Source: a bacterium
GTDB lineage: Bacteria > Patescibacteriota > Minisyncoccia > Minisyncoccales > CG1-02-41-26
Length of the DNA: 64,000 bases
Assembly: GCA_030616605.1 (NCBI GenBank)
Contig: JAUWWY010000002.1
Coordinates: 118,867 to 182,866, forward strand
Direction of reading: 5' to 3'
Part shown: positions 370 to 62,705 of the stretch, one piece after another
How the letters are laid out: every line of letters begins with the position of its first letter
Numbering within the stretch: the first letter of the stretch is position 1
Program-made: the position numbers and the translations under genes
The notes under the pieces: generated by a model
Told to the model about the DNA's origin: nothing
The model's input: the letters and a program-made list of their open reading frames with translations, nothing else
Databases searched by the model: none

Positions 370-1664
370 AAGACCTAATCAAAAAATTTACCCCCGCCTT
401 TTTATTAAGTTGGTATCATTTTTTATTGGCTTTTTTGGGCGCTTTTTTTTATCAATTTCCAACAAAAAAATTGAAGGTTATTGGGGTTACCGGCACCAAG
501 GGAAAATCAACAGTGGTTGAATTAGGAGAAAGAATTTTGGAAGAAGCCGGATACAAAGTTGCTTCTATTTCTTCCATTAAATTTAAAATCGGGAAGAAAG
601 AATGGAAAAACGAATTGAAAATGACCATGCCGGGAAGATTTAAACTTCAAAGATTTTTAAGGAAAGCACTAAATAGAGGTTGCCAATATGCTATTTTGGA
701 GGTGACTTCCGAAGGAATCCTGCAGTACCGACACAAGTTTATTGATTTCAATGTTGCGGTTTTTACCAATCTCTCGCCTGAACATATTGAAAGACACGGT
801 TCTTTTGAAAAATACCGGGAAGCCAAAGGAAAACTTTTTAAGCAGTGTCCCAAAACCCACATTATAAATTTAGATGATAGAAATTCAGAGTATTTTTTAC
901 AATTTTCAGCTGAAAGAAAATTAGTTTTTTCAACTTTCCGAAGTCCAACCTCCTCAGGAGGTCGAACTTCGGGTATTAAGGCCGACAATATTCAAGAACT
1001 TGCTACTGGAATAAGTTTTGAGATTCAAGGCGTTAGTTTTAACCTGAATTTAATTAGTAAATTTAATGTTGAAAATGCCTTGGCAGCAATTTGTCTTGCT
1101 TTATCTCAAGATGTTAGTCTTGAAAATTGTAAAAAGACATTAGAGAAAGTCAAGGGAATTCCCGGAAGAATGGAAATTGTTATTAGAAAACCTTTTAAAG
1201 TAATTGTTGATTATGCCCATACCCCTGATTCGCTTCGTAAAGTATATGAAACTTTACTCAGCTCAAAATCAAAAATGATTTGTGTATTGGGTTCTTGTGG
1301 TGGCGGAAGAGATAAATGGAAAAGACCAAAATTGGGAGAAATTGCTGCAAAATATTGCGATGAAATTATTTTAACTAATGAAGACCCATATGATGAGAAT
1401 CCCTTGCAAATTATTAATGAAATAGAGCAAGGGATTCTCAAGCCCAAAGCCCAAAGCTCAAAGCTCAAAACCTTTCATAAGATTTTGGATAGAAGAGAAG
1501 CAATAAACAAGGCATTAAGTTCGGCAAAACCAACTGATACAATAATCATCACTGGTAAGGGTTCTGAACCCTGGATGTGTATTGAGAAAGGTAAAAAAAT
1601 TCCTTGGGATGATCGTCAGATTGTTAAAGAAGAATATGAAAAAATACGAAATTTTAGAACATAA
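366..1664 (+). CDS. murE: UDP-N-acetylmuramoyl-L-alanyl-D-glutamate--2,6-diaminopimelate ligase (Mur ligase, MurE-type)
   Basis: Contains the VIGVTGTKGKST P-loop, the DYAHTPDSL motif and a Mur ligase C-terminal domain. An in-frame heptamer repeat lies at 1443-1470. Confidence 0.8.
   Translation: MKDLIKKFTPAFLLSWYHFLLAFLGAFFYQFPTKKLKVIGVTGTKGKSTVVELGERILEEAGYKVASISSIKFKIGKKEWKNELKMTMPGRFKLQRFLRKALNRGCQYAILEVTSEGILQYRHKFIDFNVAVFTNLSPEHIERHGSFEKYREAKGKLFKQCPKTHIINLDDRNSEYFLQFSAERKLVFSTFRSPTSSGGRTSGIKADNIQELATGISFEIQGVSFNLNLISKFNVENALAAICLALSQDVSLENCKKTLEKVKGIPGRMEIVIRKPFKVIVDYAHTPDSLRKVYETLLSSKSKMICVLGSCGGGRDKWKRPKLGEIAAKYCDEIILTNEDPYDENPLQIINEIEQGILKPKAQSSKLKTFHKILDRREAINKALSSAKPTDTIIITGKGSEPWMCIEKGKKIPWDDRQIVKEEYEKIRNFRT
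1443..1470 (+). repeat. In-frame heptamer tandem repeat (CCCAAAG)2(CTCAAAG)(CTCAAAA) inside murE
   Basis: Direct reading; encodes KPKAQSSKLK. Confidence 0.8.
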
Positions 1665-2037
1665 AGCTGATTTAAAAATTAGAGCTTTTGGTAAAACAAA
1701 AGAGGAGCTTTTTTTAAATATGATGTTAGGAATGCAGGAATCGCTTCAAGCAGAAAAAAGAAAAGAAGAAGCAAAAAGAGAAATAAAAATTGAATCTAAT
1801 GATTTAAATTCTCTTTTGGTTGATTTTCTTTCAGAACTTAATTATTTAAACGAAACAGAAAAAGAAGTTTACAATGATATAAAGTTTAAGGAGTTCAGTG
1901 CTGTTAAAATAAAAGGAGAAGTTTTGGGTCAAAAAGTAGAGAGCTTTGAAGAAGACATTAAAGCTGTCACCTATCATAGTTTAGATATTCATCAAAAAAA
2001 TGGAATCTGGCAAGCCACTGTTCTTTTTGATATCTGA
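1636..2037 (+). CDS. Archease
   Basis: Internal start gives MKKYEILEHKADLKIRAFGKTKEELF, a typical archease N-terminus. It overlaps the murE 3' end by 29 nt, and RtcB is encoded 1.1 kb downstream. Confidence 0.7.
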   Translation: MKKYEILEHKADLKIRAFGKTKEELFLNMMLGMQESLQAEKRKEEAKREIKIESNDLNSLLVDFLSELNYLNETEKEVYNDIKFKEFSAVKIKGEVLGQKVESFEEDIKAVTYHSLDIHQKNGIWQATVLFDI

Positions 2038-2127
2038 ACTTTTCGGGCTTGATTTAAAATTTTTATTGACTAAAATTAGAATACTTAATGTTTTTTAACA
2101 AATTAATAAAGAAAGAAGGGAAAGAAA

Positions 2128-3081: not shown

Positions 3082-3090
3082 TTATTTACC

Positions 3091-3130
3091 AGAGAGCTAG
3101 TCTAAGACTAGCTCTCTTTCTTTTATTTTC
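3091..3130 (+). terminator. Rho-independent terminator after the GH130-like gene
   Basis: 12-bp perfect stem AGAGAGCTAGTC/GACTAGCTCTCT with a TAA loop, followed by TTCTTTTATTTT. Confidence 0.55.
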
Positions 3131-3161
3131 GCGAAAATTCAAGTAAAATAAAGATAGAATT

Positions 3162-4607
3162 ATGATTTCAAAAAAAGATTTTATAAAATTAAACGATTGG
3201 CTTTGGGAGATTCCAAAAAGTTTCAGAGCCGATATGAGAGTTCCGGCTCGAGCTTATGTTACCGAAAAAATGCTTGAAGAAAGTTTTGAAGACAGGTCTC
3301 TTAAGCAACTTGTTAATGTTAGTACTTTGCCAGGAGTTATAAATTACAGTCTGGCTATGCCTGATATGCATGAGGGTTATGGTTTCCCAATTGGGGGAGT
3401 GGCAGCTATGAGAATAGCTGACGGAGTAATTTCTCCGGGTGGAGTGGGCTATGATATAAATTGCGGAATGCGGCTTTTAAAATCAGATTATTTAGAAAAA
3501 GACATCAAACCTCATTTGGAAAATTTAGCTGCAGAGATCCAAAAAGAAGTTCCCTCTGGTCTTGGTCGAGGGAGACAAATAAAAATTGATATCCAAAGTA
3601 TAGACCGAGTTTTAGAAGGAGGAGCAAGGAGATTAGTTGAACAGGGTTATGGTGAGAAAGAAGATTTAGAAAATTGTGAGTCAAATGGAAGATTTCCTCA
3701 AGCTGATGTCGATAATGTTTCTGAGCATGCTAAAAATCGAGGCAGAAATCAATTAGGAACTCTTGGAAGCGGAAATCATTTTTTGGAAATCCAAAAAATA
3801 GGGGAAATTTTTGATGAGGAAATAGCAAAAACTTTTGGCTTATTTAGAGACCAGGTCGTGATTATGATTCATACCGGATCGCGAGGTCTTGGTCATCAAA
3901 TCGCTACCGATTACATCAAAATAATGATGCAAGCTATGCAAAAATATGATATAAGATTACCCGACCAAGAGTTAGCAGCTTGTCCAATAAATTCGAGAGA
4001 AGGCAAAAAATATTTTTCAGCCATGGCTTGTGGAGCAAATTATGCTTGGGCAAATCGCCAAATGATAGCTCATTATGTTAGAAAGGCCTGGAAATCGATT
4101 TTAGGAGAAAAAGCTTCGCCACTTTCTGCTCTTTATGATGTTGCCCACAATATTGCAAAAATCGAAAAACACAAAGTTGGAGGTAAAAAAATAGAAGTTT
4201 GTCTTCATAGAAAAGGTGCTACTCGGGCTTTTCCTCCCGAACATTTAGAAATTCCAGAAAAATATAGAAAGGTTGGCCAGCCGGTTTTAATACCTGGCTC
4301 TATGGGAACTGCCTCTTATGTATTAGTTGGGACAAGAGAAGGAGAGGAAGCTTTTTTTAGTACCTGTCATGGGGCTGGCCGGACCATGTCGCGGCATGCA
4401 GCTATTAGAAGATTTCCCGGGAAAGAAGTGATAAGGGATTTGAAGGAAAAAGGAATTATTATCAAGTGTCGGAGTTTCAGAGGAATAGCTGAGGAAGCAC
4501 CATTGGCTTACAAAAATATTGATGATGTTGTTGAAATAGTACATAATGCTGGCTTATCAAAAAAAGTAGCAAAACTCGTTCCTTTAGCAGTTGTTAAAGG
4601 GGAATAA
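3162..4607 (+). CDS. rtcB: RNA-splicing ligase RtcB
   Basis: GYDINCGMRLL, GSGNHFLEIQ and HGAGR motifs; length 481 aa. Confidence 0.85.
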   Translation: MISKKDFIKLNDWLWEIPKSFRADMRVPARAYVTEKMLEESFEDRSLKQLVNVSTLPGVINYSLAMPDMHEGYGFPIGGVAAMRIADGVISPGGVGYDINCGMRLLKSDYLEKDIKPHLENLAAEIQKEVPSGLGRGRQIKIDIQSIDRVLEGGARRLVEQGYGEKEDLENCESNGRFPQADVDNVSEHAKNRGRNQLGTLGSGNHFLEIQKIGEIFDEEIAKTFGLFRDQVVIMIHTGSRGLGHQIATDYIKIMMQAMQKYDIRLPDQELAACPINSREGKKYFSAMACGANYAWANRQMIAHYVRKAWKSILGEKASPLSALYDVAHNIAKIEKHKVGGKKIEVCLHRKGATRAFPPEHLEIPEKYRKVGQPVLIPGSMGTASYVLVGTREGEEAFFSTCHGAGRTMSRHAAIRRFPGKEVIRDLKEKGIIIKCRSFRGIAEEAPLAYKNIDDVVEIVHNAGLSKKVAKLVPLAVVKGE

Positions 4608-5768: not shown

Positions 5769-5771
5769 AAT

Positions 5772-10826: not shown

Positions 10827-10842
10827 CCTTCACTTCGTTCAG

Positions 10843-10915
10843 TGGGCACGCCAGGATTTGAACCTGGGACCGCCAAGTTATAAGCTTGGTGCTCTAACCC
10901 CTGAGCTACGTGCCC
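10843..10915 (-). tRNA. tRNA-Ile (anticodon UAU)
   Basis: Reverse complement GGGCACGUAGCUCAGGGGUUAGAGCACCAAGCUUAUAACUUGGCGGUCCCAGGUUCAAAUCCUGGCGUGCCCA. The anticodon stem is CCAAG/CUUGG and the loop CUUAUAA gives anticodon U34 A35 U36. Confidence 0.75.
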
Positions 10916-14708: not shown

Positions 14709-17180
14709 ATGCCAAACGATTCTCAAAAACAGAATAAGGAGATAGGTTATATAAAGCCCCGGGAAATTACTGAGGAAATGAGAGACAGTTATTTGGATTA
14801 TGCGATGTCAGTTATTATCTCTCGAGCTTTACCGGATATCCGCGACGGTTTGAAGCCGGTCCACCGCCGAATTTTGTATGCAATGAATGAAATGGGCTTA
14901 AAGCATAATGTGAAATCCAGAAAATCAGCTACTGTTGTCGGAGAAGTTCTTGGAAAATTTCATCCGCATGGCGATACGGCTGTTTATGATTCTTTAGTGA
15001 GAATGGCTCAAGATTTTTCTTTAAGATATCCATTAATTGAAGGTCAGGGAAATTTTGGTTCAATTGATGGGGATTCTGCGGCTGCCCAAAGATATACCGA
15101 GTGCCGACTTTCAGCCCTGGGGGAAGAAATACTTCGCGATATTGAAAAAGATACAGTTGATTTTAGAGAAAATTATGATGGAACAAGAAAAGAACCTGTT
15201 GTCCTCCCTTCACCTGTTCCTCAACTATTACTTAATGGTTCATTAGGAATTGCCGTGGGAATGGCAACCAAGATTCCTCCTCATAACATTTCTGAAGTAA
15301 TGAAAGCTTGTATCTATTTAATTGACCATCCTGACTCTACCACGGAAAAGATTTTTCAATTTATTGAAGGACCTGATTTTCCAACAGGCGGTATAATTTA
15401 TGGTAAAAAAGATATAATCTCTGCTTATTCTCAAGGAAGGGGTCCGATTTTAATAAGAGGTAAAGCAGAAATTAGAGAGCAGGAAAGAAGCAATTTCCAA
15501 ATTATAATCACTGAAATTCCTTTTCAGGTTCAAAAATCAGATTTGGTTAGGGATTTTGCTAAATTAGTTGAGGATAAAAAGATAGAGGGGATAAAGAATA
15601 TCAGAGATGAATCAGACCGAGAGGGAATGAGAATTGTAATTGAACTTAAGAGAGAAGCTTTTCCGAAAAAAGTTTTAAATGCCCTCTATAAATACACGGC
15701 CTTGCAGAAAACCTTTTATTTAAATATGTTGGCTTTGGTTGACGGCATCCAGCCGAAAATCCTTTCTTTAAGCGACATTTTAACTTTATATTTAAAACAT
15801 AAAAAAGAGGTTGTTATCCGGAGAACAAAGTTTGATTTAAGAAAAGCAAAAGAAAAAGCTCATATTCTTGAAGGACTAATGGTAGCTTTGAAAAATATTG
15901 ATGAGGTGATTAAGACTATTAAGAAATCATCTTCTCGGCAAGAAGCTCAAAAGAACTTAATGAAGAAGTTCAAACTAACTCAAATACAGGCAACAGCTAT
16001 TTTAGAGATGAAACTTCAGAGTTTAGCAAAACTGGAGCGAGAAAAAATTGAAAAAGAACTTAAAGAGATAAAAGCGAGAATAAAAGAATTAACTTTAATT
16101 TTAAAAAGTCCTAAAAAAATAAAAGAGGTGATAAAAAAAGAACTTAAAGAAATGGCTGAGAAATACAAAGACGAAAGAAAAACAAAAGTTATAACTTCTT
16201 CACCTGGAGAAATTGGCGAGGAAGAATTAATTCCCAAAGCTGAAACGATTATAACCTTAACTCAAGGAGGATTCATTAAAAGGGTTAAACCTTCATTGTA
16301 TAAAATTCAAAAGAGAGGAGGGAAAGGAATTATGGGTCTTGAGGTTTCCAAAGAGGATATGGTTGAACACTTTTTAATGGCGAACACCCTGGACAAACTT
16401 TTATTTTTTACTGACTCAGGAAAGGTTTTTCAATCTCTGGTTTGGGAAATTCCTGAAATGAGCAGAATTTCTAAAGGCAGAGGACTTTTAAATTTTTTGG
16501 AAATATCCCAAAGCGAAAAAGTTTTAGGTCTTATTTCCTATGGTAAAGAAGATGAGCAGAAGAAGAAGTATTTAGTAATGGTAACCAAAAATGGTATAAT
16601 TAAAAAAACAGATGTTCAAGCTTTTCAAAATGTCCGTAGGAATGGATTAATAGCTATTAAACTCGGAAAAGAAGACTTTTTGAAAGAAGCTAAAATTATT
16701 GATGAAAGAGATGAAATACTTTTAGTAACTAAGAAAGGGAAATCTATTAGATTTAAGGAAAAAGATTTAAGAGCAATTGGTAGGGCAGCAGCCGGAGTTA
16801 GGGGAATGAGATTAAGTAAAAGAGATGAGATAATTAGAATGGACATAATAAAAGTTCAAAGTGCAAAACTCAAAGCGCAAAACTATCTGTTAATAATTAC
16901 TGAAAATGGCTATGGCAAAAGAACTAAGATTGGAGAGTACAGAATCCAGAAAAGAGGAGGTTCAGGGATAAAAACAGCAAGAATTACTGAAAAAACCGGA
17001 GAAATCGTTTTCTCTCGAGTAGTCGGTAAAGAGGAAAAAGATTTAATTGTTATTTCTAAAAAAGGTCAGGTAATAAGAGTTCCTCTTAGTTCAATTTCAA
17101 TTATTGGCCGAGCCGCATCCGGAGTAAGAGTAATGAAATTAAGCAAAGGAGATAAAGTAGCTTCAGCTATTTGTCTCTAA
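14709..17180 (+). CDS. gyrA: DNA gyrase subunit A
   Basis: [29 protein letters not shown] and C-terminal beta-pinwheel repeats. An in-frame CAAAG-family repeat lies at 16863-16886. Confidence 0.9.
16863..16886 (+). repeat. CAAAG-family patch GCAAAACTCAAAGCGCAAAACTAT inside gyrA
   Basis: Encodes SAKLKAQNY. Shares CTCAAAGCGCAAAACTAT with the argS copy. Confidence 0.8.
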
Positions 17181-17720: not shown

Positions 17721-18116
17721 ATGAGAAAATTTATTGTAATTTTAATTCTTTCAATAATTTTATTGACACAGGCGAGTTTTATTTTGGCTGCAGCTGCTCC
17801 TGATTGTGATACTTATTGCCAAAATACAAGTACTTGGGACCCACCTGAAGGAGAATTTTGTTTTTGTTCCCCTATTTCTGCTACTTCTGTTGAAGCTATT
17901 GTAGGGCGCATAACCAATTGGGTTTTCTATATTGGTATAATTCTTGCTCCCTTAATGATTATTATCGGCGCTTTTATGTTCTTGACCTCAGCTGGCGAAC
18001 CTGATAAAGTTAGAAGAGCAAAAAAGCTAATTATCTGGACAATTATCGGTTTAGCAGTTATACTGTTTAGTAAAGGACTAATAAGTTTAATAAAATATAT
18101 CTTATTAGGAACATAA
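17721..18116 (+). CDS. VirB2/TrbC-like type IV secretion pilin paralog 1 (Cys-rich)
   Basis: Sec signal peptide, then a Cys-rich stretch, then ITNWVFYIGIILAPLMIIIGAFMFLTSAGEPDKVRRAKKLIIWTIIGLAVIL. This is the two-helix core seen in VirB2 (xxGWLFYVALAI...AKARAKQMLVYAVIGL). Confidence 0.5.
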   Translation: MRKFIVILILSIILLTQASFILAAAAPDCDTYCQNTSTWDPPEGEFCFCSPISATSVEAIVGRITNWVFYIGIILAPLMIIIGAFMFLTSAGEPDKVRRAKKLIIWTIIGLAVILFSKGLISLIKYILLGT

Positions 18117-18138
18117 TAAAAAGGTCGAAAAACCTTAA

Positions 18139-18576
18139 TTGATGTTAAATAAAAAGAAAATGAAAAAAATATTAGCAGGTCTAATTTTGGGAGGATTATT
18201 GGTTAGTTTGTTTTTACCTCTGGCTGTTTCTCAGGCTCAAGAAGTACTTCCTCCTGATAGCTGTAAAATGGCGCATACTATTGCGAACTGTCCAGCTAGC
18301 GGAAATGATTGTGATTTTGACAGCACCACCTATGATTGTGGAATATGTTGTATGCTTAACACTATCTATACTGTTACTAATTGGATTTTTTATATTTTAA
18401 TTCTAGTGGCAGTAATTATGATTATTCTTGGTGGTTTTGTTTTTATGACTGCTGCTGGAAGTCCGGAGAAAACGGCAAAGGGAAGAAATATTGTTGTTTA
18501 TGCTGTTATTGGTATAGCCATTGCTATTATAGCAAAATTGGTTCCTGTATTAGTTAGAACTATTATTGGATTCTAA
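18139..18576 (+). CDS. VirB2/TrbC-like type IV secretion pilin paralog 2 (Cys-rich)
   Basis: Signal peptide, then 7 Cys in about 40 aa, then VTNWIFYILILVAVIMIILGGFVFMTAAGSPEKTAKGRNIVVYAVIGIAIAI. Confidence 0.5.
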   Translation: MMLNKKKMKKILAGLILGGLLVSLFLPLAVSQAQEVLPPDSCKMAHTIANCPASGNDCDFDSTTYDCGICCMLNTIYTVTNWIFYILILVAVIMIILGGFVFMTAAGSPEKTAKGRNIVVYAVIGIAIAIIAKLVPVLVRTIIGF

Positions 18577-48906: not shown

Positions 48907-50595
48907 ATGCGTAAAGTTTTAATTATTTTTCTTTTAGTCATTTTTATTGGAGTAGGAATAGTTGGATTTTGGTATTGGCAAAAAAATATTTATTCCAAAG
49001 ACACTTTGAAACTTGAAATTTTAGGACCTGAATTAGTTCAAGCCGGCCAGGAAATTGAGTATTTAGTAAAAATGAAAAATAATGGCAAAGTTAGATTGGA
49101 AAATCCTGAGTTAATCTTTCAGGCTCCGGAGCAATCTATTTTAAAAGATTATTCTAATTTAAGAGTTACTCAAAAAATAGAAGACATTTATCCCGGTGAA
49201 CAAAGAACATATTCTTTTAAAGCTCAGCTTTTCGGAGAAAAAGACATTACTTTGGAAGCCAAAGCTTGGTTAAGTTATCAACCAAAGAATTTAAAAGCTC
49301 GCTTTGAATCAAAAACAACCTTGACGATAAGAATTGAATTTATTCCCTTAACTTTTGAGTTTGATTTACCTCTAAAGGTTGAAAAAGGGGAGGATATAAA
49401 ATTTTCTTTAAATTATTTTTCAAACATTGATTATCTTTTAGAGAATTTAAGAGTAAAAATTGAATATCCATCAGATTTTACTTTTGAAAGTTCTCTTCCC
49501 GAAGCTTTAGATGAAAATGAGTGGTCCTTGCCTCCTTTAGTTCAGGCTTCAGGAGGAAGAATAGAGATAAATGGACTAATTGAAGGAAAAGAGGGTCAGA
49601 AAAAGGTTTTCCGAGCCCAGCTGGGCATGCTTAAAGACGGAGATTTTTGGCTCTTAAAAGAAACTGCTCAATCAATAGAAATAATTGAGTCTTCTTTGTA
49701 CATTTCTAATTTAATTAATAATTCCCCAAATTATACAGCAAATCCCGGTGATTTTCTTCATTATGAGATTTACTTTAAAAATATTGGCAAAAGACCAGTT
49801 CAGAAGAAATATATTTTTGCTCGACTTGAGGGAGAATTTTTTGACTTAACAACTCTAAAATCAAACAAGGGAGAATTTGGCCAAGGGGATAACACTATTC
49901 TCTGGGACTGGAAAAATGTTCCCGACCTCAGATTTTTAGATGTTGGTCAAGAAGGAAAGGTTGAATTTTGGATAAGAGTCAAGGAAAGTGTTGATTATCA
50001 AGTTAAAAACGCAAAATTAAGAGCAGAAATAGCTTTAGGGGAAATTGAGAAAGTTTTTGAGACGAAAATAAATTCCCAATTAACTCTTTTCCAAAAAGCC
50101 TACTTTACTCAAGAATTTTTTGAAAATCTAGGTTCTTTGCCGCCCAAGATAGGTCAAGCCATTGATTATGTTATTGTCTGGCAAGTGGAAAATACTTGTA
50201 ATGAGTTAAAAAATGTTAAAGTAAAAAGTGCTTTATCAGAAAATGTTCAGCCGACTGGCAAAATTTTTCCCGAAGATGCTAAATTCACTTATGATTCAGA
50301 ATCAAAAACTGTAATGTGGAATATCGGAGAAGTCAACGCTTGGCAGAGTTTTGAAAATATTCCTCTGATTTTAGCCTTCCAGGTCAGATTGACTCCTGAT
50401 TTTTCTCAAAAAGGAAAAACTCCTCTTTTGATTAAGGAAAGTAATATTTTGGCTGAAGACAATTGGACTTCAGAAATTTTAGAAGAAAAAGCTTCAGCAG
50501 TGAATACCACTTTACCCGATGATGAAACCGTCAGTCCAGAACAAGGAATAGTGGAAGAACAAGGAATAGTGGAAGAACAAGGAATAGTGGAGTGA
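48907..50595 (+). CDS. Membrane-anchored exported protein with beta-sandwich (DUF11/CARDB-like) repeats, hypothetical
   Basis: N-terminal TM/signal segment and repeated beta-rich modules. The C-terminus ends in three EQGIVE copies (an 18-nt DNA repeat at 50539-50592). Confidence 0.35.
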   Translation: MRKVLIIFLLVIFIGVGIVGFWYWQKNIYSKDTLKLEILGPELVQAGQEIEYLVKMKNNGKVRLENPELIFQAPEQSILKDYSNLRVTQKIEDIYPGEQRTYSFKAQLFGEKDITLEAKAWLSYQPKNLKARFESKTTLTIRIEFIPLTFEFDLPLKVEKGEDIKFSLNYFSNIDYLLENLRVKIEYPSDFTFESSLPEALDENEWSLPPLVQASGGRIEINGLIEGKEGQKKVFRAQLGMLKDGDFWLLKETAQSIEIIESSLYISNLINNSPNYTANPGDFLHYEIYFKNIGKRPVQKKYIFARLEGEFFDLTTLKSNKGEFGQGDNTILWDWKNVPDLRFLDVGQEGKVEFWIRVKESVDYQVKNAKLRAEIALGEIEKVFETKINSQLTLFQKAYFTQEFFENLGSLPPKIGQAIDYVIVWQVENTCNELKNVKVKSALSENVQPTGKIFPEDAKFTYDSESKTVMWNIGEVNAWQSFENIPLILAFQVRLTPDFSQKGKTPLLIKESNILAEDNWTSEILEEKASAVNTTLPDDETVSPEQGIVEEQGIVEEQGIVE

Positions 50596-50609: not shown

Positions 50610-51953
50610 ATGGATTTAACTCAAAAAATTATATCTTTATCTAAAAGAAGGGGATTTATTTTTCCTTCTTCTGAAATTTATGGAGGAATAGGTGGAGTTT
50701 ATGACTTCGGTCCTCTTGGAAATGAGTTAAAAAGAAACATTAAGAAAGTTTGGTGGCAAAGTATGATGAAAGAGGAAAATATGGTCGGTTTAGATTCTGG
50801 GATTTTATTGAATCCTCGAGTTTGGCAGGCCTCTGGTCATTTAACTGCTGGTTTTGCTGATGAATTGGTAGAGTGTAAATCTTGCCACAAGAGATTTAAG
50901 AAAAATGAGATAGCCGGCAACAAATGCCCGGAATGCAGTGGTAAACTGACAAAACCAAGAAAATTTAATTTAATGATGAAAACCTTTGTTGGGCCGGTTG
51001 AAGATAATAGTTCTATTACTTATTTAAGACCTGAAACCTGTCAGGGGATTTTTGTTAATTTTTTGAACATTTTGAATTCAATGCGCTTAAAAATTCCCTT
51101 CGGTGTTATTCAAATAGGTAAATCTTTTCGAAACGAAATTACTACTAAAAACTTTATTTTCCGGACTCGAGAATTTGAACAAATGGAAATGGAGCTGTTC
51201 TGTCATCCCAAAGAGGCAGATAAACTTTTTGATTACTGGAAAGAACAGAGATTAAAGTGGTATCAAGATTTAGGAATAAAAAAAGAGAATTTAAGGGTTG
51301 TAGAAGTCTCAAAAGAAGACCGGGCTCACTATGCCAAAAGGCAAACAGATATTGAATATCATTTTCCCTTTGGTTGGGAAGAAATTGAAGGAATTCACAA
51401 TAGGGGAGATTTTGACCTTTCAAATCACTCAAAACATTCTGGAGAAGATTTGAAATATTTCGATGAGAAATCAGACCAGAAATATTTTCCTTATATTATT
51501 GAAACTTCGGTTGGGGTAGAAAGACCTTTATTTGCTTTTTTAACTGAAGCTTATCAAGAAATAAAAGGAGGAAGAAAAAAAATCAAAAATCAAAAATCAA
51601 AAATCAAAATTAAACACGAAGCAGAAATTTTATTAAAGTTAGATAAAAGACTAGCCCCAATAAAAGTTGCAGTTCTGCCCTTAGTCAGAAATAAACCAGA
51701 GATTGTCAAGAAGGCAAAGGAAATTTATAATCTTTTAAGACCTCATTTTAGCTCTCAATATGATGAAGTTGGTTCAATCGGCCGTCGCTATCGCCGCCAA
51801 GACGAAGTAGGAACAATTTTTTCAATCACTGTTGATTTTCAGACCCTGGAAGACGATACAATAACTTGTCGGGACCGCGATACAATGGCCCAAGAAAGAG
51901 TAAAAATAAAGGATTTAGTTAAAAGTTTAAAAGAAAAATTAGAGAATTGTTAG
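50610..51953 (+). CDS. glyQS: Glycyl-tRNA synthetase (dimeric class II, archaeal/eukaryote type)
   Basis: GFIFPSSEIYGGIGGVYDFGPLG N-terminus and class II motifs. An AAAAATC heptamer patch lies at 51575-51613. Confidence 0.85.
   Translation: MDLTQKIISLSKRRGFIFPSSEIYGGIGGVYDFGPLGNELKRNIKKVWWQSMMKEENMVGLDSGILLNPRVWQASGHLTAGFADELVECKSCHKRFKKNEIAGNKCPECSGKLTKPRKFNLMMKTFVGPVEDNSSITYLRPETCQGIFVNFLNILNSMRLKIPFGVIQIGKSFRNEITTKNFIFRTREFEQMEMELFCHPKEADKLFDYWKEQRLKWYQDLGIKKENLRVVEVSKEDRAHYAKRQTDIEYHFPFGWEEIEGIHNRGDFDLSNHSKHSGEDLKYFDEKSDQKYFPYIIETSVGVERPLFAFLTEAYQEIKGGRKKIKNQKSKIKIKHEAEILLKLDKRLAPIKVAVLPLVRNKPEIVKKAKEIYNLLRPHFSSQYDEVGSIGRRYRRQDEVGTIFSITVDFQTLEDDTITCRDRDTMAQERVKIKDLVKSLKEKLENC
51575..51613 (+). 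repeat. In-frame heptamer patch (AAAAATC x4) inside glyQS
   Basis: Direct reading; encodes KKIKNQKSKIKIK. Confidence 0.75.
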
Positions 51954-52276: not shown

Positions 52277-55200
52277 ATGAACCACCATAACAACAAAAAA
52301 TCAGAATATATTTCTTTGCAAGAAGCTACTAAATATTGCTCTTATTCGCGAGATTATTTGAAATTGCGTGCTCATCAAGGAAAATTGAAAGCAATTAAGA
52401 TTGCTAGAAACTGGCTGACCAAAAAAGAATGGATAGATGAATATTTGGAAAAGACCAACAACTATAAAAATCAGATAACTGAGCAGAGAAAGGAAAAAGA
52501 GAAAGAGAAAGAGTTAGAAAAAATAGAGGAGACAAGAAGGGAAGAAACAACTAAGCCAACGCCCGTCTTTGCTCCAAAACCCTCTTTTCAATTAGCGCCC
52601 AGAGTCCAGCTGATTGTTTTTATTGTGGCACTGGTTTTTGTTTTGACTTTTATTGGAACTATTTTTGCTTATCCATATTTTGAACCGGTTGTCAGCCCCA
52701 TTGTAAAAGAAATCACTTTTGATATTAAAAAAAATACAGCCTCTATTAAAGACCAAGTCAGCCAATATGTTGCTCAAAATGTAAAAGAAATTAAGAAACA
52801 AATACAAATACTAGTTCAGAAGATAAAACAGGTTCCTCAAAAAATTGTGAGCGTTTTCAAAGGAGAAGAGAAAGTTTTTTTAAGGGAAGATCTTGTTTTA
52901 AAACAAGAGATAGAAAAATTAATTGCTGAGAAATTTGTTACTAAAGAACAATTCAGAGAACTCCAGGAAAGATTTGAAAAACTAAAACAAGAAGGACTGT
53001 CTCAAAAAGAAATAATAAAAGAAGTAGAGGTTATTGTTAAAGAGATAGAAACAATTGATGATAAATCCCTGGTCCTGCTCAAATCCCAAATTTCCGAAAT
53101 CCAGGAATGGGAAAAAGATATTCTGACTCTCCAGATTCTAACTGCTAAACTCCAAACCCATCCTCCCTCTACCCAGGTTTCAACCGCTCCAGTATATATC
53201 GGCTCCCAGGGAATTCAAATAGGAGGAGCTGCGACCTTAGCTTCTTTAGGAGTTTCCGGTATGGCTGGAATTACTAACTTAGGAGTTGGTGGCTCTGCCA
53301 CCCTGGGTTCTGATTCTTTAGACAAACTGAGAGTTTATGCCACTGCTAATTTTATCTCCCCTGTTACTTTAACCAACACCTTCAGAGTTGGCGGGACAAC
53401 TGATTATTTAACTGTTAATTCAAACGGCAATCTTAGTACCACTGGAACTTTAACTGCTGCCACCTCTACTCTTTCCAGTCTTTTCACTACTGGAAATTTG
53501 GCAATAGGCGGTAATCTTGCTGTCTCAGGTACTCAGGTTGTCCAAGCCACCTCCACTTTAGCCACCACCACTATTACCAGATTAGGCATCGCCACAACAA
53601 CTCCATCTTATCCTTTAACCGTGGCTGGCGATATCTGGGGTTCAGGAAATATTGTCTTGGCAGGAACAATTGATACTGGCCAGGGAGCAACTGAAGTTTA
53701 TCTAATGAACCAAAACCTGAGAACATCTGATTCTCCAACTTTTAATAATCTTACTGTTACAAGCACAGCTACCACCACTAACTTAATAGTAACCAGTGAT
53801 TTGACTCTTACAGGACTAACCAATGGTTCAATTCTCTTCTCTACCTCATCAGGACTAATCTCCCAAGACAATGCTAATCTCTTCTGGGATGATACTAATA
53901 ATAGATTGGGCATTGGGACAAGCAGTCCAGCTACTATCTTTCAAGTAATTGGTACAAGCACTTTGCAAACTATTCTTCCTCAAACAACAAACACTTACAC
54001 CTTAGGTTCTCCAACCTACAAATGGGCAAACCTCTATGCTGCCACTACCACCATAGGGGATACAATCATCATTGGTACAAATAGCATTGCAGCTACCTCA
54101 ACTTTAACAATTTCTTCAGCTAATTCCTCAGATATTATCTTAAGCCCAGCACGTTATGTCGGCATCGGGACAACGAGTCCTGCCTCACTTCTCGATGTCT
54201 ATGGTTCTGCCAGATTTGGAACTTCATCTACTTCGACTTTATTTGTTGATTCAGGAAATGGAAGAGTCGGCATCGGGACGACGAATCCGCTAAAATTGTT
54301 GCATGTCGTTGGTGGAGAAGCACGTATGGACGGTGTCCTGACAGCGAACAGCACGGCAAATCTCTATGGTACAGTCAATATTGGGGATGGTGCGGGCGAT
54401 ACGGTCAGTATCTCAGCTGGTAATCTCTCCTTCAACAACAATACGACAGTGACGATGACGGATGGCGGCGGACGAACTCTCGACTTTGGACCAGGGGTTC
54501 TATCCATTAGTAAGGCTACCGGCAAAGTCGGCATCGGGACGGGGAGTCCTTCAGGAACATTAGATGTAAACAAAGGAGGAGTAATAGTAACAAATCTTCA
54601 AGCTCATACCGCTAATTTCTATGGAACTAATTATTCGGGAGGAACAATTGCTATATATGATAGTGCTTCTATTGCAGCTGGTGTTGGCGGAGGAATTAAT
54701 TTAGGAGGAATGTATGTTGGAGATGATGTTATAGAGTTTGCTCAGGTAAGAGCATCTAAGGAAACAGCTACAGTTGGTCAGTATGGGGGTTCGTTGATAT
54801 TTGCTACACGTGTTCATGGAGGGAATATGACTGATTATATGATAATAAATAGTTCAGGCAACGTCGGCATCGGGACGACAACAATAGGTTCGAGATTAAC
54901 CATTCAAAGCTCTGGAAATGCTTCTACAACTTCTGCTTTAAATATCCAAGATTCTGATGGAACAAGTATGTTATATGTAAGAGATGATGGAAACATCGGC
55001 ATCGGGACGGATAGTCCTGCTTATGAATTAGATGTAAATGGATTTATAAAATCAAAGGGTCAGATATATAATTATTGGCAAACTGATTCGTCAGGTTCGG
55101 CTGGTAATGATAAATGGTATCAGATAGCAGAGGCAAATATCATAAGTCAGTATGCTCAATATAGTGCTGTGTTTCATGTGTATCGCCATCGTTTATTTTC

Positions 55201-57712
55201 TTCTTCTGCGTATTCCCAGCAGTTTATGGTTGATTTCAGACAGGATGCCGCTATGACAAACGACCCAATTACTTTTATATGGCCTATACAAGCATCAGGT
55301 GCTTCAGCAATACAAGTTAAGGCTATATTAACCACAAACACTGCAGACTTGAAAACATTAAAGGTTTATGTATATCAAACAGGTACATATTCTATTATTA
55401 GGATAGCACAAGTTCAGGGTAATTTTGACCCCTTTGAATCAGCGTCAGGTATAGAAACAGGTTCTTTGCCTGCAGGGACACAGTATGATTTAGACCACGA
55501 TGCTTTTTATTTGAAAAATGACGGCAACGTCGGCATCGGGACGGCGAGCCCTACACATAACTTAGAAATTGAAGGGACTACGGCACAGATTCAGACGATA
55601 ATGACAGGTACCACAAGTTATAGTGGTCTGGTGGCTGATTCGGATACGGCAACGCATTATCTTGTGGTTGCTACCTACGGCAGTGAGGATACAGGAACAA
55701 TTTTTGGCATAACTCGGGCTGATGTTTCTATGTTATTTGCAATAAATCAGCCATTATTTATTGGAACATTCAGTGCTGAGGATTTGATTATTGGAACTAA
55801 TGATACAGAACGTATGCGTATTTTATCAGATGGCAAAGTCGGCATTGGGACGAGTAGTCCAAATGAAAAACTTTCTGTTTCTGGTAATTTAAGTATAGGA
55901 AATGCGGCTGCTGGGACAGATGCGACCAGGACATTAGTACTAGGGCTTGGGACAATTCCTTCTTCTTCTCCTGCTGATCTAGTCCAGCTTTATGCTGAAA
56001 ATGTGGATAGAGACTTGTGTACAGGAGGAACGGCTAGCGCAAATAGTGAGTATGATGCTGGTAGTAGTGCAGATAAGGTATTCGACGATATTATTACCAC
56101 CTCCTGGATGACCGAGCAGGGAGTTGTAACTGGCTGGGTAAAATATGATTTTGGTAGCGGGAACAATAAGATAATAGACAAATACCGAGTTTATATGGGT
56201 GGTAGCTCTTCGAGGTCTCCTAAAGACTGGACTTTTCAGGGTTCAAATAATGATAGTGATTGGGACACATTAGACACCCAGACTAGTCAGACCTGGAGTG
56301 GTGCCGAATGGAAAGATTACACCTTTAGCAATAGCACTCCTTATCGTTATTATATGATTAATATTACTGCTAATAATGGGGATGCCAACTTTTTGATGAT
56401 GAATGAGATGGAGATGATATTCATGAATCTAGCCGGATTAAAAGTAAGAGATGAGGCAGGGATTATAACGCTACTTTCACCCCACGATGTTGGGACAGGA
56501 GAGTGGATATTTTATTCAGAGAATGCCAATACAGGCAAAGTCCTTAGGGTAGAAATGGAGAGATTAACAAAGAGACTAAATAGAATATTAGGAGGAGGAT
56601 TTGTGACAGAAAACAACAAAACAGAATTGGCAGATCATGCTTTCAATATTGTCGATTCATCAGGGAATAGCTTGTTATTTGTCGGAGATAACGGCAATGT
56701 CGGCATCGGGACAACAAGTTCTTCTAACATTTTAACGGTCAAGAAGGACTCAACTACTGATCCTATTGCTGATGCTTGGACTCAATATTCAACTCCAGAT
56801 AGTAAAATAGTTTTGGGTTCTGCTAATGACCAGGCAGAAGAATATCTGGAGAAATTCAAAGAGTTAATGGTCTATAAATGGAAAAGAAATGAAAATGAAC
56901 AGGAACGTCTGGGTGTTTTGGCTGTCACCTCTACTCCTTCGGAAATCTTAGCTTATGATGCTGGAGGTAATATCCAGGGAATAGACCTTGGCGGCTACAT
57001 TGGCTTTCTCCATGAGGCAATGAAAGCCCAGCAAACCCAAATAGAAGAACTAAGAAAAGAGGTTTTTGCTACAACAACCCTTTCAGTAGAAGAGAACACT
57101 GAAGGTCAAATTGTTAACCTTTCTCTGGAAGAGCTTCGTCGGTCGCTTGCTTTACTCGGCCTTTTAGTGACAGAGACCGGGTCTCTGGAAGTTCAGGAAT
57201 TAAAAGCTCAAGAATTAGAGGTTGGTTCCCAATCAAAGCCAGCTGGTATTACTATTTATGACGAAGAGACCAGTCAGCCCTTTTGTATTAAAGTTAAGGG
57301 CGCTGAGATGATAAATGTGCCTGGTAAATGTGATACTGTACAAACTAATAATAATATCACCGACCCGACCAGTGACACTATTCCAACGCCCGAACCCGAG
57401 CCTGAACCAACGCCAGAGCCTGAACCACAGCCTGAGCCAGAGCCAGAATCAACCATCACCGTCCCGACCGGTGACACTGTTCCAACTCCTGAACCTGAAC
57501 TAGAACCAGAACCAGAACCAGAGCCAACTCCTGAACCTGAACCTGAACCAACTCCAGAGCCCGAGCCAGAACCAACTCCAGAACCTGAACCAACTCCTGA
57601 ACCCGAACCCGAGCCACAGCCCGAACCAACTCCACAGCCCGAACCACAGCCCGAACCAACTCCCGAACCAACTCCCGAACCCGAACCAGCACCGGCGCCA
57701 GTTGAAGAATAA
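52277..57712 (+). CDS. Giant (1811 aa) membrane-anchored surface protein with an N-terminal HTH-like domain, tail-fibre-like repeats, a discoidin-like domain and a PEPT-rich C-terminal tail
   Basis: N-terminus [41 protein letters not shown] resembles an HTH_17/excisionase fold. TM helix [23 protein letters not shown]. Nine (N/K/R)VGIGT(T/S)SP...L.V.G repeats. [10 protein letters not shown]...GWVKYDFG...YRVYMG...[12 protein letters not shown] is F5/8-type-C-like. The last ~110 aa are (PEPEPT)n. Confidence 0.7.
57360..57705 (+). repeat. Hexa/nonanucleotide-periodic coding repeat (CCNGAACCNGAACCNACT) encoding (PEPEPT)n
   Basis: Direct reading of the sequence. The antisense strand gives the spurious G/S-rich ORF 57274-57747. 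Confidence 0.8.
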
Positions 57713-57774: not shown

Positions 57775-57803
57775 AGGAGAATTTAGTCTATAATCGTATT
57801 GTA

Positions 57804-59069: not shown

Positions 59070-59070
59070 C

Positions 59071-60102: not shown

Positions 60103-60104
60103 AT

Positions 60105-60791
60105 ATGTCTTTTTTTTATATTGTTGCCACCCCAATTGGAAACCTTAAAGACCTGAGTTTGAGAGCAATTGAAATTTTAAATAGTGTTGATTTGATTTTA
60201 GCTGAAGATACAAGAGTTACTAAAAAATTGTTAAACCGGTTTAAAATCAAAAAACCGGTTTTATCTTACCATCAACACTCAAAACTGAAAAAAATAAATT
60301 ATATTATAAAACTTCTCAAAAAAGGAAAGAATTTAGCTTTGGTTTCAGATGCCGGCACCCCGGGAATTTCTGATCCAGGAAACAAATTAGTTGAAGAAGT
60401 GATTAAATCATTGAGTGATCAAGTAAAAATTATCCCTATTCCGGGTGCCTCGGCAGTCACAGTTGCAGCCAGTATTTCCGGTTTTCCAATGGATAAATTT
60501 TTGTTTTTAGGTTTTCCTCCAGCAAAAAGAAAAAGGAAGAAATTTTTTCAAGAAGTTTTAGATTCAAAATATCCAGTGATTTTTTATGAATCACCCCATA
60601 GAATTTTAAAAACACTCAACGAATTAAACCTTGAACTACAAACCACCAACTACAAACTACAGACTATTGTCTGTCGCGAGTTAACAAAAATTTATGAAAC
60701 AGTTTACAGGGGAACAATTGAGGAGGTAATTGAAAAAATTAAAAAAGATAAAATTAAAGGCGAGTTCGTTGTTATAGTAAAAAGAAAATAG
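60105..60791 (+). CDS. rsmI: 16S rRNA (cytidine1402-2'-O)-methyltransferase RsmI
   Basis: LYIVATPIGNLKDLSLRAIEIL...LAEDTR. Confidence 0.8.
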   Translation: MSFFYIVATPIGNLKDLSLRAIEILNSVDLILAEDTRVTKKLLNRFKIKKPVLSYHQHSKLKKINYIIKLLKKGKNLALVSDAGTPGISDPGNKLVEEVIKSLSDQVKIIPIPGASAVTVAASISGFPMDKFLFLGFPPAKRKRKKFFQEVLDSKYPVIFYESPHRILKTLNELNLELQTTNYKLQTIVCRELTKIYETVYRGTIEEVIEKIKKDKIKGEFVVIVKRK

Positions 60792-61215
60792 CTAAAGAGA
60801 TAATTATAATTTGAGAAAAGATCCCCCAAAGAGGGAATATTTTTTTATCTTCGGGAAAATGAAATTTTTGATGAAAAACCCGCCCTATTTCTAATAATTT
60901 ATTGGAGAAAATTAAATTGAGGAAAACAAAAGCGTCTGGTAAGACAGCAATTAATCCTCCGATAAGGGCCAAAAAGAATTTTTCTGAAAAAAGAAAAACA
61001 AGAAAGACACCTAATGATAAATCAAGAGCAATTTTTAAAAAATCCTTAAAGGAATTTTTCCATTTTTTTTGTTTTATATTTTCAATAGAATATTCCCAGT
61101 GAGGCAGAGTGTCCAAAAGATAATGACTTAAAAAAGCCAAAATCAGAGCTAAGGGTAAAAATTTAATTTTTAAAACTATAGCCGCACCAATTAAAAAATG
61201 AATAGCTAAAATCAT
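60772..61215 (-). CDS. Small polytopic membrane protein, hypothetical
   Basis: Four predicted TM segments; no recognisable motif. Confidence 0.3.
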   Translation of the reverse strand: MILAIHFLIGAAIVLKIKFLPLALILAFLSHYLLDTLPHWEYSIENIKQKKWKNSFKDFLKIALDLSLGVFLVFLFSEKFFLALIGGLIAVLPDAFVFLNLIFSNKLLEIGRVFHQKFHFPEDKKIFPLWGIFSQIIIISLAIFFLL

Positions 61216-61256
61216 GAAAATTTAATAAAAATATGATAAAATTATTGTAGCATATT

Positions 61257-62705
61257 ATGAAGAGAATTAATAAAAAATTTTTTATTTCTACAGCTATAGA
61301 TTATCCTTCGGAGAAACCGCATCTAGGGCATTGTTTAGAGAAAATCCAGGCAGATGTGTTAGCTCGATATAAGAGACTTCAAGGTTTTGATGTTCATTTC
61401 AGCACGGGTCTAGATGAGCACGGTCTTAAAATACAAAGACGAGCTCAGAAAGCAGGAAAGAATCCCCAGGAGTTTGTAGATGAAATGAGTAGATATTTTA
61501 AGAATTTATGGAAAATACTAAATATTTCAAATGATGATTTTATTCGAACAACTGAAAAAAAGCATATAAAAGTTGTTCAGAAGGTTTTTCAAAAAATCTA
61601 TGAAAAAGGAGATATTTATAAAGGGAAATATAAGGGTTTATACTGTGTGGACTGCGAGAGTTTTTATTTACCGAAAGATTTAGTAGATGGTAAATGTCCT
61701 ATACATCATAAATCCCCCGAATCAATACAAGAGGAGAGTTATTTCTTTAGAATGAATAAACACCAAGAAGCTCTTACTAGATACATCAAAGAGAATGAAA
61801 ATTTTATTATTCCAGGAAGTAGAAGGAATGAGATTTTGAAAAGACTGTCTGAATCTCTTCAGGATTTAAGTATTTCACGAAAAACAGTTAAATGGGGAAT
61901 TCCATTACCCACCGATAAAAAATTCAGTTTGTTCGTTTGGATAGATGCTTTAATAAATTATTTCACAACTATAGATTATCCGAATAAAAAATTTAAAAAA
62001 TTTTGGCCAGTTGATGTCCATATTATTGGCAAGGATATTATTTGGCACCACAGCGTGATTTGGGGTAGTTTACTTTTATCTTTGGGATTGCCATTACCAA
62101 AAACAATATTAGTTCATGGTTTTATTACTTCTGGTGGTCAGAAAATGTCAAAAAGTTTGGGTAATGTTATTGACCCATTTGAGTTGATTGAGAAATACGG
62201 AACTGATCCAGTACGCTATTTTCTTTTGCGGGAAATTTCTCCGACTGAAGATGGTGATTTCACCTATGAGAAATTTGAAAAGAGATATAATGCAGATCTT
62301 GCTTCAGGTTTGGGGAACTTGGTAGCGAGAGTTTTGACAATGGCAGAAAAGATAAACTCAAAGCGCAAAACTCAAAGCGCAAAACTACAGCTCAAAGCTC
62401 AAAACTTAGTAAAAAAAGAAATTGATAAAACTTGGGAAAATTATAAAAATACTTTTGAGCGCTTTAAATTTAATGAAACCTTAGGCACAATTTGGAAATT
62501 GATTGGTTTTTGCGATAGATATATTGAACAGGAAAGGCCCTGGGATAAATCTGAAAGGCAGTTATCAGTTATTAACGATTTATTGTTTTGTTTAAATGAA
62601 ATTGCTAAACTACTTCAACCATTTTTACCGGAAACAGCAGAGAAAATTTTTAAGCAATTAAAGTCTAAAAAAGGAAAACCACTTTTTCCCAGGCTAGGGG
62701 ATTGA
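61257..62705 (+). CDS. metG: Methionyl-tRNA synthetase (short form)
   Basis: PHLGHCLEKIQADVLARY (HIGH region) and KMSKSLGN. A CAAAG-family repeat lies at 62355-62408. Confidence 0.85.
   Translation: MKRINKKFFISTAIDYPSEKPHLGHCLEKIQADVLARYKRLQGFDVHFSTGLDEHGLKIQRRAQKAGKNPQEFVDEMSRYFKNLWKILNISNDDFIRTTEKKHIKVVQKVFQKIYEKGDIYKGKYKGLYCVDCESFYLPKDLVDGKCPIHHKSPESIQEESYFFRMNKHQEALTRYIKENENFIIPGSRRNEILKRLSESLQDLSISRKTVKWGIPLPTDKKFSLFVWIDALINYFTTIDYPNKKFKKFWPVDVHIIGKDIIWHHSVIWGSLLLSLGLPLPKTILVHGFITSGGQKMSKSLGNVIDPFELIEKYGTDPVRYFLLREISPTEDGDFTYEKFEKRYNADLASGLGNLVARVLTMAEKINSKRKTQSAKLQLKAQNLVKKEIDKTWENYKNTFERFKFNETLGTIWKLIGFCDRYIEQERPWDKSERQLSVINDLLFCLNEIAKLLQPFLPETAEKIFKQLKSKKGKPLFPRLGD
62355..62408 (+). 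repeat. CAAAG-family patch AACTCAAAGCGCAAAACTCAAAGCGCAAAACTACAGCTCAAAGCTCAAAACTTA inside metG
   Basis: Encodes NSKRKTQSAKLQLKAQNL. Confidence 0.8.

Follow-up and report, generated by a model that had tools for sequence, protein, structure and literature searches.

Results

Heptamer patches in five genes

We analysed a 64-kb stretch of DNA (positions 118,867 to 182,866 of contig JAUWWY010000002.1; hereafter, the window) in which several housekeeping genes contain short patches of tandem CAAAG-type heptamers. The window has a G+C content of 34%. Its methionyl- and valyl-tRNA synthetases (MetRS and ValS) are closest to those of metagenome-assembled genomes (MAGs) labelled Parcubacteria, Paceibacterota, Nealsonbacteria, Gribaldobacteria and Minisyncoccales. 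Among MetRS sequences, the best match has 77% identity. Hence, the window is part of a Patescibacteria (candidate phyla radiation) genome of the Parcubacteria/Paceibacteria. Pfam searches confirmed the genes in question: a MurE-like Mur ligase gene, gyrA, valS, argS, metG and a gene for an HD-domain protein (Table 1).

An initial annotation had located patches at 1443-1470 (the MurE-like gene), 16863-16886 (gyrA), 21016-21070 and 22572-22605 (valS), 43944-43984 (argS) and 62355-62408 (metG). The sequences and coordinates of these six sites are correct, with one adjustment: at 22572-22605 the patch is present but the array itself spans 22557-22592. As described, gyrA and argS share the 18-mer CTCAAAGCGCAAAACTAT exactly, and metG carries a C variant. 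A 'weaker copy' had also been placed in the HD-domain gene (33456-33476), giving a count of at least six host genes. This site contains one true heptamer and did not match the element profile described below, even at E ≤ 20. We therefore ruled it out as a family copy, leaving five genes and six sites. The pattern (C[TCG]CAAA[GA]){2,} matches solely these five genes, twice in valS, and always on the sense strand. With up to one mismatch, the two-unit pattern has 22 matches in the window; 2.24 ± 1.5 are expected and none of 100 dinucleotide shuffles reached 22. The patches occupy every codon phase: phase 0 in the MurE-like gene, argS and valS site 1, phase 1 in gyrA, and phase 2 in metG and valS site 2.

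Table 1. Heptamer copies, further period-7 arrays, host genes and other features of the window.
Feature	Position	Strand	Sequence on the sense strand	Details
MurE-like Mur ligase gene	366-1664			host gene
MurE-like four-heptamer block	1440-1471	+	CCCAAAG CCCAAAG CTCAAAG CTCAAAA	codons ~359-369; nhmmer 18.4 bits, E 1.3e-4 (window-only search); TRF period 7, 4.3 copies
Archease gene	1582-2037
RtcB RNA-ligase gene	3162-4607
tRNA-Ile gene (anticodon TAT)	10842-10915	-
gyrA	14709-17180			host gene
gyrA four-heptamer block (left two thirds)	16852-16885	+	TTCAAAG TGCAAAA CTCAAAG CGCAAAA CTAT	codons ~716-726; nhmmer 33.5 bits, model positions 2-35
Two small type IV secretion pilin-domain proteins	17721-18576
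valS	20691-23213	-		host gene
valS site 2 full copy	21013-21065	-	TTCAAAG CTCAAAG x3 CTACAG TTCAAAG TTCAAAA	codons ~717-733; nhmmer 38.6 bits, model positions 3-55; translation NSKLKAQSSKLQFKVQNL
Inverted repeat upstream of valS site 2	21071-21096	-	GGTTTGTTCTACAACAAACT	coding
valS site 1 four-heptamer block	22557-22589	-	CTCAAAG CGCAAAG x3	codons ~209-219; nhmmer 21.8 bits, model positions 2-34; TRF period 7, 3.9 copies, 100% matches; translation KLKAQSAKRKA
tsaD array	23316-23361	-	GCCATTT x4	exact 27-nt run; T-rich on sense strand
tsaD array	23641-23677	-	CAAGATT x3.3	TRF / exact-run scans
HD-domain protein gene	33193-34542			no family copy
Family X DNA polymerase gene	35299-37059	+
argS	42679-44265			host gene
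argS full copy	43942-43994	+	CTCAAAA CGCAAAG CTCAAAG CGCAAAA CTATAG CTCAAAA TTTAAAG	codons ~422-438; nhmmer 48.8 bits, model positions 2-54; translation LKTQSSKRKTIAQNLKL
ileS (44841-47726) array	47307-47350	+	unit AAAAATC/T	TRF / exact-run scans
18-nt x3 tandem repeat	50538-50591	+		perfect
Class II aminoacyl-tRNA synthetase gene (50610-51953) array	51571-51617	+	AAAAATC x4.6	TRF / exact-run scans
Pro/Glu-rich repeats in gene 52277-57712	57356-57681	+
rsmI-like methylase gene (60105-60791) array	60634-60666	+	AACTACA x4.7	TRF / exact-run scans
metG	61257-62705			host gene
metG full copy	62354-62407	+	CTCAAAG CGCAAAA CTCAAAG CGCAAAA CTACAG CTCAAAG CTCAAAA	codons ~367-384; nhmmer 54.5 bits, model positions 2-55; translation NSKRKTQSAKLQLKAQNL
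TRF, Tandem Repeats Finder.

A composite element of defined length

The patches share a layout. Briefly, four heptamers are followed by a 6-nt spacer (CTAYAG) and two further heptamers, giving a total of 48-53 nt. The basic arm units are NNCAAAR, and CTACAG, CTATAG and CCACAA occur as spacer variants. Full 4+6+2 copies are found in metG, argS and valS site 2. The gyrA, valS site 1 and MurE-like patches consist of the four-heptamer block alone, equivalent to the left part of the element.

The same layout recurs outside the window. We scanned metagenomes with the 18-mer CTCAAAGCGCAAAACTAY and recovered 88 stretches. Roughly half of them were chance matches in high-GC contigs, of a kind also encountered in a scan of viral contigs, and were set aside; some 40 low-GC contigs had the 4+6+2 layout with identical ends. 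A profile built from an ungapped alignment of 17 seed copies was then used with nhmmer. Across the window, its relatives and metagenomes, 58 full-length matches with common ends were identified. The complete census of this sequence contains 97 copies, of which 34 lie in long open reading frames (ORFs) in the A-rich orientation. One copy lies in an ORF in the opposite orientation, which we take to be a chance partial match. The remaining 62, of either orientation, lie between genes or in short frames; 17 of the intergenic copies have an inverted partner no more than 120 nt away. We conclude that the patches are members of a dispersed, multi-copy repeat family with a consensus and a defined length. 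Element density in the window is approximately 1 per 11 kb.

Copies were also found in Gribaldobacteria and Nealsonbacteria MAGs, and one hairpin was found in a relative (L016) whose ValS is 66% identical to that of the window. Hence, the repeat family belongs to the clade of the window. A generic pattern scan of viral contigs, done as a check for phage, gave a single match: a plain (CAAAACT)x4 array with no composite layout. This non-coding array (9103-9133 of L177, an IMG/VR contig of 62% G+C) is from an unrelated high-GC virus and again has exactly four heptamers.

Stop codons and the orientation of copies in genes

That copies in genes are confined to the sense strand, as first noticed in the window, holds in the census (34 versus 1). 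In the T-rich orientation, TGA, TAG or TAA closes all three frames of 14 of the 15 distinct copies in genes, and of 23 of the 36 copies between genes. Hence, copies in genes are sense-only because the T-rich orientation is full of stops, as had been proposed. The A-rich orientation has a mean of 2.3 open frames in genes compared with 1.3 between genes. Similarly, TAAAR units, which place a stop in one frame, account for 17% of units in genes but 34% of those between genes. Stop codon content alone would thus set the orientation rule.

The conserved entity is the DNA rather than the peptide, in agreement with the initial annotation. The 48-53-nt architecture is the same in intergenic DNA, and the spacer is read in different frames, as LQ, NY(N) or TT/TI according to the host. 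This frame argument is informative for the spacer and tail but weak inside the array, where successive 7-nt units shift from frame to frame in any case. The patches also use rare codons. CTC encodes 6 of 10 patch leucines (5% genome-wide), CGC all 3 arginines (5%), AGC 5 of 10 serines (10%) and AAC 4 of 6 asparagines (22%).

Intergenic copies and hairpins

Between genes, the arm is found in either orientation. The arm often has an inverted partner across an 18-nt loop; such pairs form hairpins of 105-125 nt, with folding energies of -29 to -61 kcal/mol, that fill the intergenic gap. Six hairpins, from six contigs and in both orientations, can be aligned over their full length, including the 18-nt loop. 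No compensatory covariation was detected in these alignments (0 of 33 pairs). Common descent predicts hairpins that align without compensatory change, and nothing in them points to selection for an RNA fold. Intergenic copies lie close against genes, with a start codon no more than 10 nt away in 17 of 45 cases and a stop codon equally near in 17 of 40. In an Rfam scan of the window solely tmRNA and four tRNAs were matched, and no family was found for the repeat.

Copies in genes are not structured at the RNA level, with z-scores near zero (-0.2, -0.8 and +0.6). The sole significant fold, at valS site 2 (z = -3.4), is due to a flanking inverted repeat unrelated to the heptamers. This repeat, GGTTTGTTCTACAACAAACT, is itself coding and lies just upstream of the valS copy. 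The earlier suggestion of an RNA-level motif is therefore not borne out, and the unit sequence at the same site differs between genomes.

Position of the patches in host proteins

Alignment of the host proteins with their orthologues places every patch in a hypervariable, indel-prone loop. In MetRS, the patch is in the length-variable linker joining the catalytic and anticodon-binding parts (120 orthologues). An AlphaFold2 model of this protein has a mean predicted local distance difference test (pLDDT) score of 80.9 and a predicted template modelling score of 0.81. Residues 371-381 have pLDDT below 50 and are flanked by two long, confident helices. The argS patch is in a variable linker of the DALR domain (120 orthologues, and PDB 3fnr for comparison). 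Both valS sites are loops with 0 to 45 extra residues among relatives, and the loop at site 2 precedes the anticodon-binding domain. Relative to the C-terminal domain of M. tuberculosis GyrA (PDB 3uc1), the gyrA patch is a loop of 7 additional amino acids between blades of the beta-pinwheel, and this loop is variable among 16 orthologues. The patch of the MurE-like protein is in a hypervariable loop with 0-25 extra residues (83 homologues; PDB 8w9z). Hence, patch sites are variable or surface regions compatible with the host fold. The translated patches are rich in K, Q, S, A and N, and the peptides are predicted to be disordered.

The patches had been described as inserted. Their location in variable loops agrees with this, but host genes are only 24-39 nt longer, net, than their shortest orthologues, whereas the element has 48-53 nt. 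Elsewhere, hosts include UvrC (twice), triose-phosphate isomerase, glycosyltransferases, a Mur-ligase-like protein, the end of ribosomal protein L17 and membrane proteins. Such unrelated hosts disfavour a role tied to nucleic acid binding.

The two ValS loops hold other in-frame, DNA-level inserts in relatives (L015, L063, L007, L009, L035, L008, L025, L061, L023 and L042). Among them are perfect palindromes such as GGAGGTGCGACCTCCTCGAGGAGGTCGCACCTCC, direct repeats with the translation PPQINTDFDSLRSPHRLTQIKN, and a VIASGAKQSRRKNGIAASPSAPRNDR type. Hence, these loops are used by several small repeat families. Separately, the 840-residue ValS of the window has an insertion of approximately 120 residues after residue 425 (residues ~426-545). 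It is present in two Gribaldobacteria (L001 and L002) and absent from most Paceibacteria orthologues, which have about 690-730 residues.

Age and concerted evolution of copies in genes

Orthologous copies with the 48-nt layout occupy the same site in argS of four relatives (L169-L172), metG of three (L173-L175) and valS site 2 of five (L017, L068, L021, L011 and L019). L002, L078, L109 and L158 share the gyrA block at the orthologous site. Host proteins of these relatives are 60-77% identical to those of the window; the copies in genes are old and vertically inherited. Hence, the spread into genes proposed initially is an interpretation; the observation is of old copies shared by orthologues.

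Units are alike within an array but specific to the genome. They are C[TG]CAAAR in the window, TGCAAAA in L169 and TTAAAAA in L170 and L174. In L171 and L017 the units are CTCAAAA with the spacer CCACAR, and L176 has AAATTCC units and an AACAAA spacer in the same layout. For valS site 2, unit identity is 0.83 within a genome, compared with 0.77 for orthologous and 0.76 for non-orthologous units of different genomes. The equivalent values for argS are 0.75, 0.65 and 0.64. In both cases, the within-genome value was not attained in any of 5,000 permutations (p < 0.0002 each). Between genomes, therefore, orthologous units are no closer to each other than non-orthologous units. The three full copies of the window likewise share 0.79-0.85 mutual identity, compared with a mean of 0.63-0.74 to their orthologues in other genomes. 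The length of orthologous genic arrays is constant between species, at 48 nt. We conclude that units in genes undergo concerted evolution without length change.

Period-7 arrays in the window and its relatives

The initial annotation overlooked five further period-7 arrays in the window. These have other units and lie in tsaD (two arrays), ileS, a gene for a class II aminoacyl-tRNA synthetase and rsmI (Table 1). The tsaD GCCATTT array encodes the hydrophobic peptide LPFAICHLPF and adjoins a CTDNA motif. It aligns to a region of conserved length in 49 orthologues, so that sequence was overwritten with no lengthening. Hence, arrays can replace sequence and not merely lengthen it.

Relatives were sampled as 80 valS-centred loci from species-representative genomes (L001-L080; 1.21 Mb, nearly all Patescibacteria), and arrays were called at ≥4 copies and 85% identity. 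There were 103 arrays of period 7, compared with 3, 4, 2 and 4 for periods 4, 5, 6 and 8, and approximately none for periods 9-15. Shuffled DNA of the relatives gave 1 period-7 array. In this lineage, therefore, period 7 predominates among tandem repeats. The window contains 6 exact period-7 arrays where 0 are expected. Among the 109 arrays of window and relatives, 89 (82%) are inside ORFs of at least 100 codons, while such ORFs make up 91% of the DNA. Arrays are thus modestly depleted in ORFs (p = 0.002) and twofold enriched in the 9% of DNA outside them. On the sense strand, 76 of the 89 arrays in ORFs are A-rich. Array units vary by genome and include AAATTCC, AAATCCG, AAAACTC, AAAAATC and AAAGCTC. 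Pairs of arrays within one mismatch of each other make up 30% of pairs from the same genome and 16% of those from different genomes; none of 2,000 permutations reached the observed value.

Exact period-7 runs in the window and relatives (1.27 Mb) have a bimodal length distribution: they cluster at 18-20 nt and at 30-32 nt, and lengths of 21-29 nt are scarcer. Blocks of two and four units fit this pattern better than slippage at a smooth equilibrium does. When four-unit arrays of relatives were tested for a phase-shifted second block, 33 of 43 gave no call. Hence, we do not claim the composite form for all heptamer arrays.

Other features of the window

The family X DNA polymerase has HHH_8, pol beta palm and thumb, and PHP domains. 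Gap-filling polymerases are prone to slippage. The window and L170-L172 have in common the gene order PolX, NUDIX, ..., IF3, tmRNA, SmpB, ArgS, His_Phos, IleS, RecO. The tRNA-Ile gene adjoins tRNA-Val(GAC), and its TAT anticodon is unusual for reading AUA. Other repeats include the 18-nt triplicate, at the C-terminal end of a DUF7619 protein, and long Pro/Glu-rich repeats (periods of 6, 12 and 18, up to 99 nt) near the end of an 1811-residue protein. Archease and the RtcB RNA ligase are encoded as a pair, and the two small proteins with type IV secretion pilin domains are adjacent (Table 1).

Discussion

We consider it probable that the patches belong to a dispersed, DNA-level repeat family of heptamer periodicity, whose copies are filtered by selection and whose units are homogenised within each genome. 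The family resides in intergenic DNA as single arms and hairpin pairs. By insertion or ectopic conversion, arms may have moved into permissive loops of genes or overwritten them. Selection would then retain only the stop-free orientation, in frame, and where the fold of the protein tolerates it. Homogenisation in a 7-nt register would keep the units alike and the length unchanged. Slipped-strand mispairing with repair, or gene conversion, could be responsible, acting within arrays and probably between them. The copies would be tolerated passengers and not functional sequences.

Several observations count against this interpretation. Classical miniature inverted-repeat transposable elements and REP elements have terminal inverted repeats, a target-site duplication and a cognate transposase or RAYT gene in the genome. 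Here, single arms showed neither terminal inverted repeats nor target-site duplications, junctions likewise had no evident duplication, and Pfam searches of ORFs in the 64 kb covered by the window gave no transposase, reverse transcriptase or RAYT. Hence, any mobility of the family is putative. Elsewhere in the clade, numerous heptamer arrays are simple runs of four units that lack the composite layout. Some sites could have formed in situ, since the net gain is 24-39 nt and the tsaD array replaced sequence at constant length. Base composition peculiar to each genome could explain part of the likeness of its units. Moreover, some pairs from different genes of different genomes match the similarity seen within the window: the metG copy and valS site 2 of L068 have an identity of 0.90. 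Finally, the gyrA patch is identical at 31 of 36 positions in L002 and L158, while its flanks are 70% identical overall and about 50% identical at third codon positions. This conservation could reflect selection on the nucleotide sequence and, hence, function.

The alternative that survives best, though we think it unlikely, is a plain microsatellite origin. Each array would have arisen locally, by 7-nt polymerase slippage from A-rich loop codons, with no dispersed element and no copying between loci. Heptanucleotides are reported to be the commonest long simple sequence repeats in most prokaryotic genomes, and a 7-nt polymerase footprint has been proposed (PMC4679880, which summarises prior studies; PMC4692102). 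The numerous unit types in the clade, the many simple four-unit blocks and the overwriting of tsaD at unchanged length are all consistent with local slippage, and the native gyrA codons CAA AAC TAT (QNY) could have seeded an array. However, local slippage does not account for the 4+6+2 layout, with identical ends, in three genes of the window and at dozens of genic and intergenic sites on unrelated contigs. Nor does it account for entire 120-nt hairpins, loop included, that can be aligned between contigs. Run lengths are bimodal rather than in steady decay. Furthermore, gain or loss of one unit would frameshift essential genes, and orthologous arrays stay at 48 nt.

We are more doubtful that an active, dedicated process or reader is behind the homogenisation and the extra conservation. 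Candidates would be a factor that takes one heptamer per subunit, or templated repair. If so, essential genes of these ultra-small bacteria would carry an embedded nucleotide-level signal, in common with the hairpins directly before start codons.

It is slightly less probable again that the patches are a functional nucleotide signal, amounting to a second code in coding sequence. Heptamers would be sites or signals on RNA or DNA, for instance for an OB-fold, cold-shock or S1-type protein, binding 7 nt per monomer, or for translational control. The conservation of the gyrA patch above its flanks is in keeping with such a role, as are the retention of rare codons, the long persistence of the architecture at three sites and the 17 of 45 intergenic copies close to start codons. 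Against it, units at the same site differ by genome (C[TG]CAAAR, TGCAAAA, TTAAAAA or AAATTCC), and positions in genes follow protein loops and not mRNA landmarks. Copies in genes have no RNA structure, the hairpins show no covariation, and Rfam has no match for the repeat.

Selection at the peptide level is very improbable and largely refuted. In this scenario, lysine-rich loops would aid enzymes that bind nucleic acids, with DNA likeness as a by-product. Indeed, the peptides are basic, and four of the five host proteins in the window have tRNA or DNA as their ligand. However, the same element occurs in non-coding DNA and in hosts such as triose-phosphate isomerase, glycosyltransferases and membrane proteins. 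The codons are atypical, the spacer is read in three frames to give different residues and the MetRS loop is predicted to be disordered. Chance is refuted: coding strands of this AT-rich genome are A-rich at 34% G+C, but shuffles never gave the 22 matches observed, where 2.2 are expected, and the enrichment is limited to period 7.

The initial annotation could name no matching element, but precedents exist in heptanucleotide repeat families (PMC4679880, PMC4692102) and in Rickettsia palindromic elements (RPEs), which occur in frame within genes (PMC10969869). RPEs resemble miniature inverted-repeat transposable elements. They are palindromic repeats of ~150 bp, found between genes and also in frame in unrelated housekeeping genes, translated as a whole palindrome and compatible with the host fold (PMC10969869). 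The repeat described here is similarly small and multi-copy, is intergenic as well as in frame in unrelated genes, is translated and fold-compatible, and occurs in small, reduced genomes. Its complete form, the intergenic hairpin, is also palindromic. Unlike in RPEs, the translated unit is not a palindrome but a single, A-rich, unstructured arm of 32-53 nt; genes hold just the one arm, since stop codons close the other. The 7-nt units that evolve in concert are a further difference, and we expect no relationship to RPEs in sequence.

Known heptanucleotide families include the short tandemly repeated repetitive (STRR) sequences of cyanobacteria, TAACTGA of Beggiatoaceae, cyanobacteria and Bacteroidetes, and GGGAATC of Xanthomonas (PMC4679880, PMC4692102). 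They typically have 2-6 tandem copies, with four preferred, abut start codons and are overwhelmingly intergenic (PMC4679880, PMC4692102). One orientation has stops in all frames, as described for TAACTGA (PMC4679880); copies in ORFs are in the other orientation only, in variable surface regions (PMC4679880, PMC4692102). The repeat of the window shares with these families the head-to-tail 7-nt units, the preference for four of them, the genome-wide excess of period 7, the abutment to start codons, the orientation set by stops and the location of ORF copies in variable regions. In contrast, 82% of arrays here are in ORFs, including essential genes, and are not predominantly intergenic. The fixed 4+6+2 layout, long inverted pairs and constant-length concerted evolution at orthologous genic sites also differ. 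We conclude that the Patescibacteria repeat is a member of neither RPEs nor the known heptamer families. Our searches of the literature library at our disposal found no paper tying heptamer repeats or RPEs to Patescibacteria or Parcubacteria.

In Plasmodium, housekeeping proteins encoded by an AT-rich genome contain low-complexity insertions. In Borg elements, tandem repeats are reported to create disordered regions (PMC9879509). As in these systems, the segments described here are hydrophilic, disordered by prediction, lineage-specific loops of conserved proteins with an origin at the DNA level. The units of Plasmodium and Borg repeats are multiples of three or homopolymeric codon runs. Here, by contrast, the unit is 7 nt, so that successive units of an array fall into the three frames by turns, and copies of the element also lie outside genes. 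In phase-variation (contingency) repeats, gain or loss of a unit switches the frame of a non-essential or surface gene; the arrays described here are in essential housekeeping genes and their length is conserved between species. DNA uptake sequences differ in being 9-12 nt long, at ~1 per kb and in both orientations in genes; the element here has 32-53 nt, a density of ~1 per 11 kb and a single orientation in genes.

If our interpretation is correct, translated fragments of a non-coding repeat family are a routine part of the tRNA synthetases, gyrase and cell-wall ligases in a major lineage of uncultured bacteria. This would affect gene calling, alignment trimming, phylogenomics and protein-family models for the candidate phyla radiation, and may account for part of the unexplained loop insertions in its proteins. 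The repeat would also offer a natural system for asking why 7-nt units dominate long simple repeats of prokaryotes. Fixed-length orthologous arrays with genome-specific units would allow rates of conversion to be measured. More broadly, the idea of selfish DNA in protein-coding genes, best documented in Rickettsia, would extend to a very different lineage with reduced genomes.

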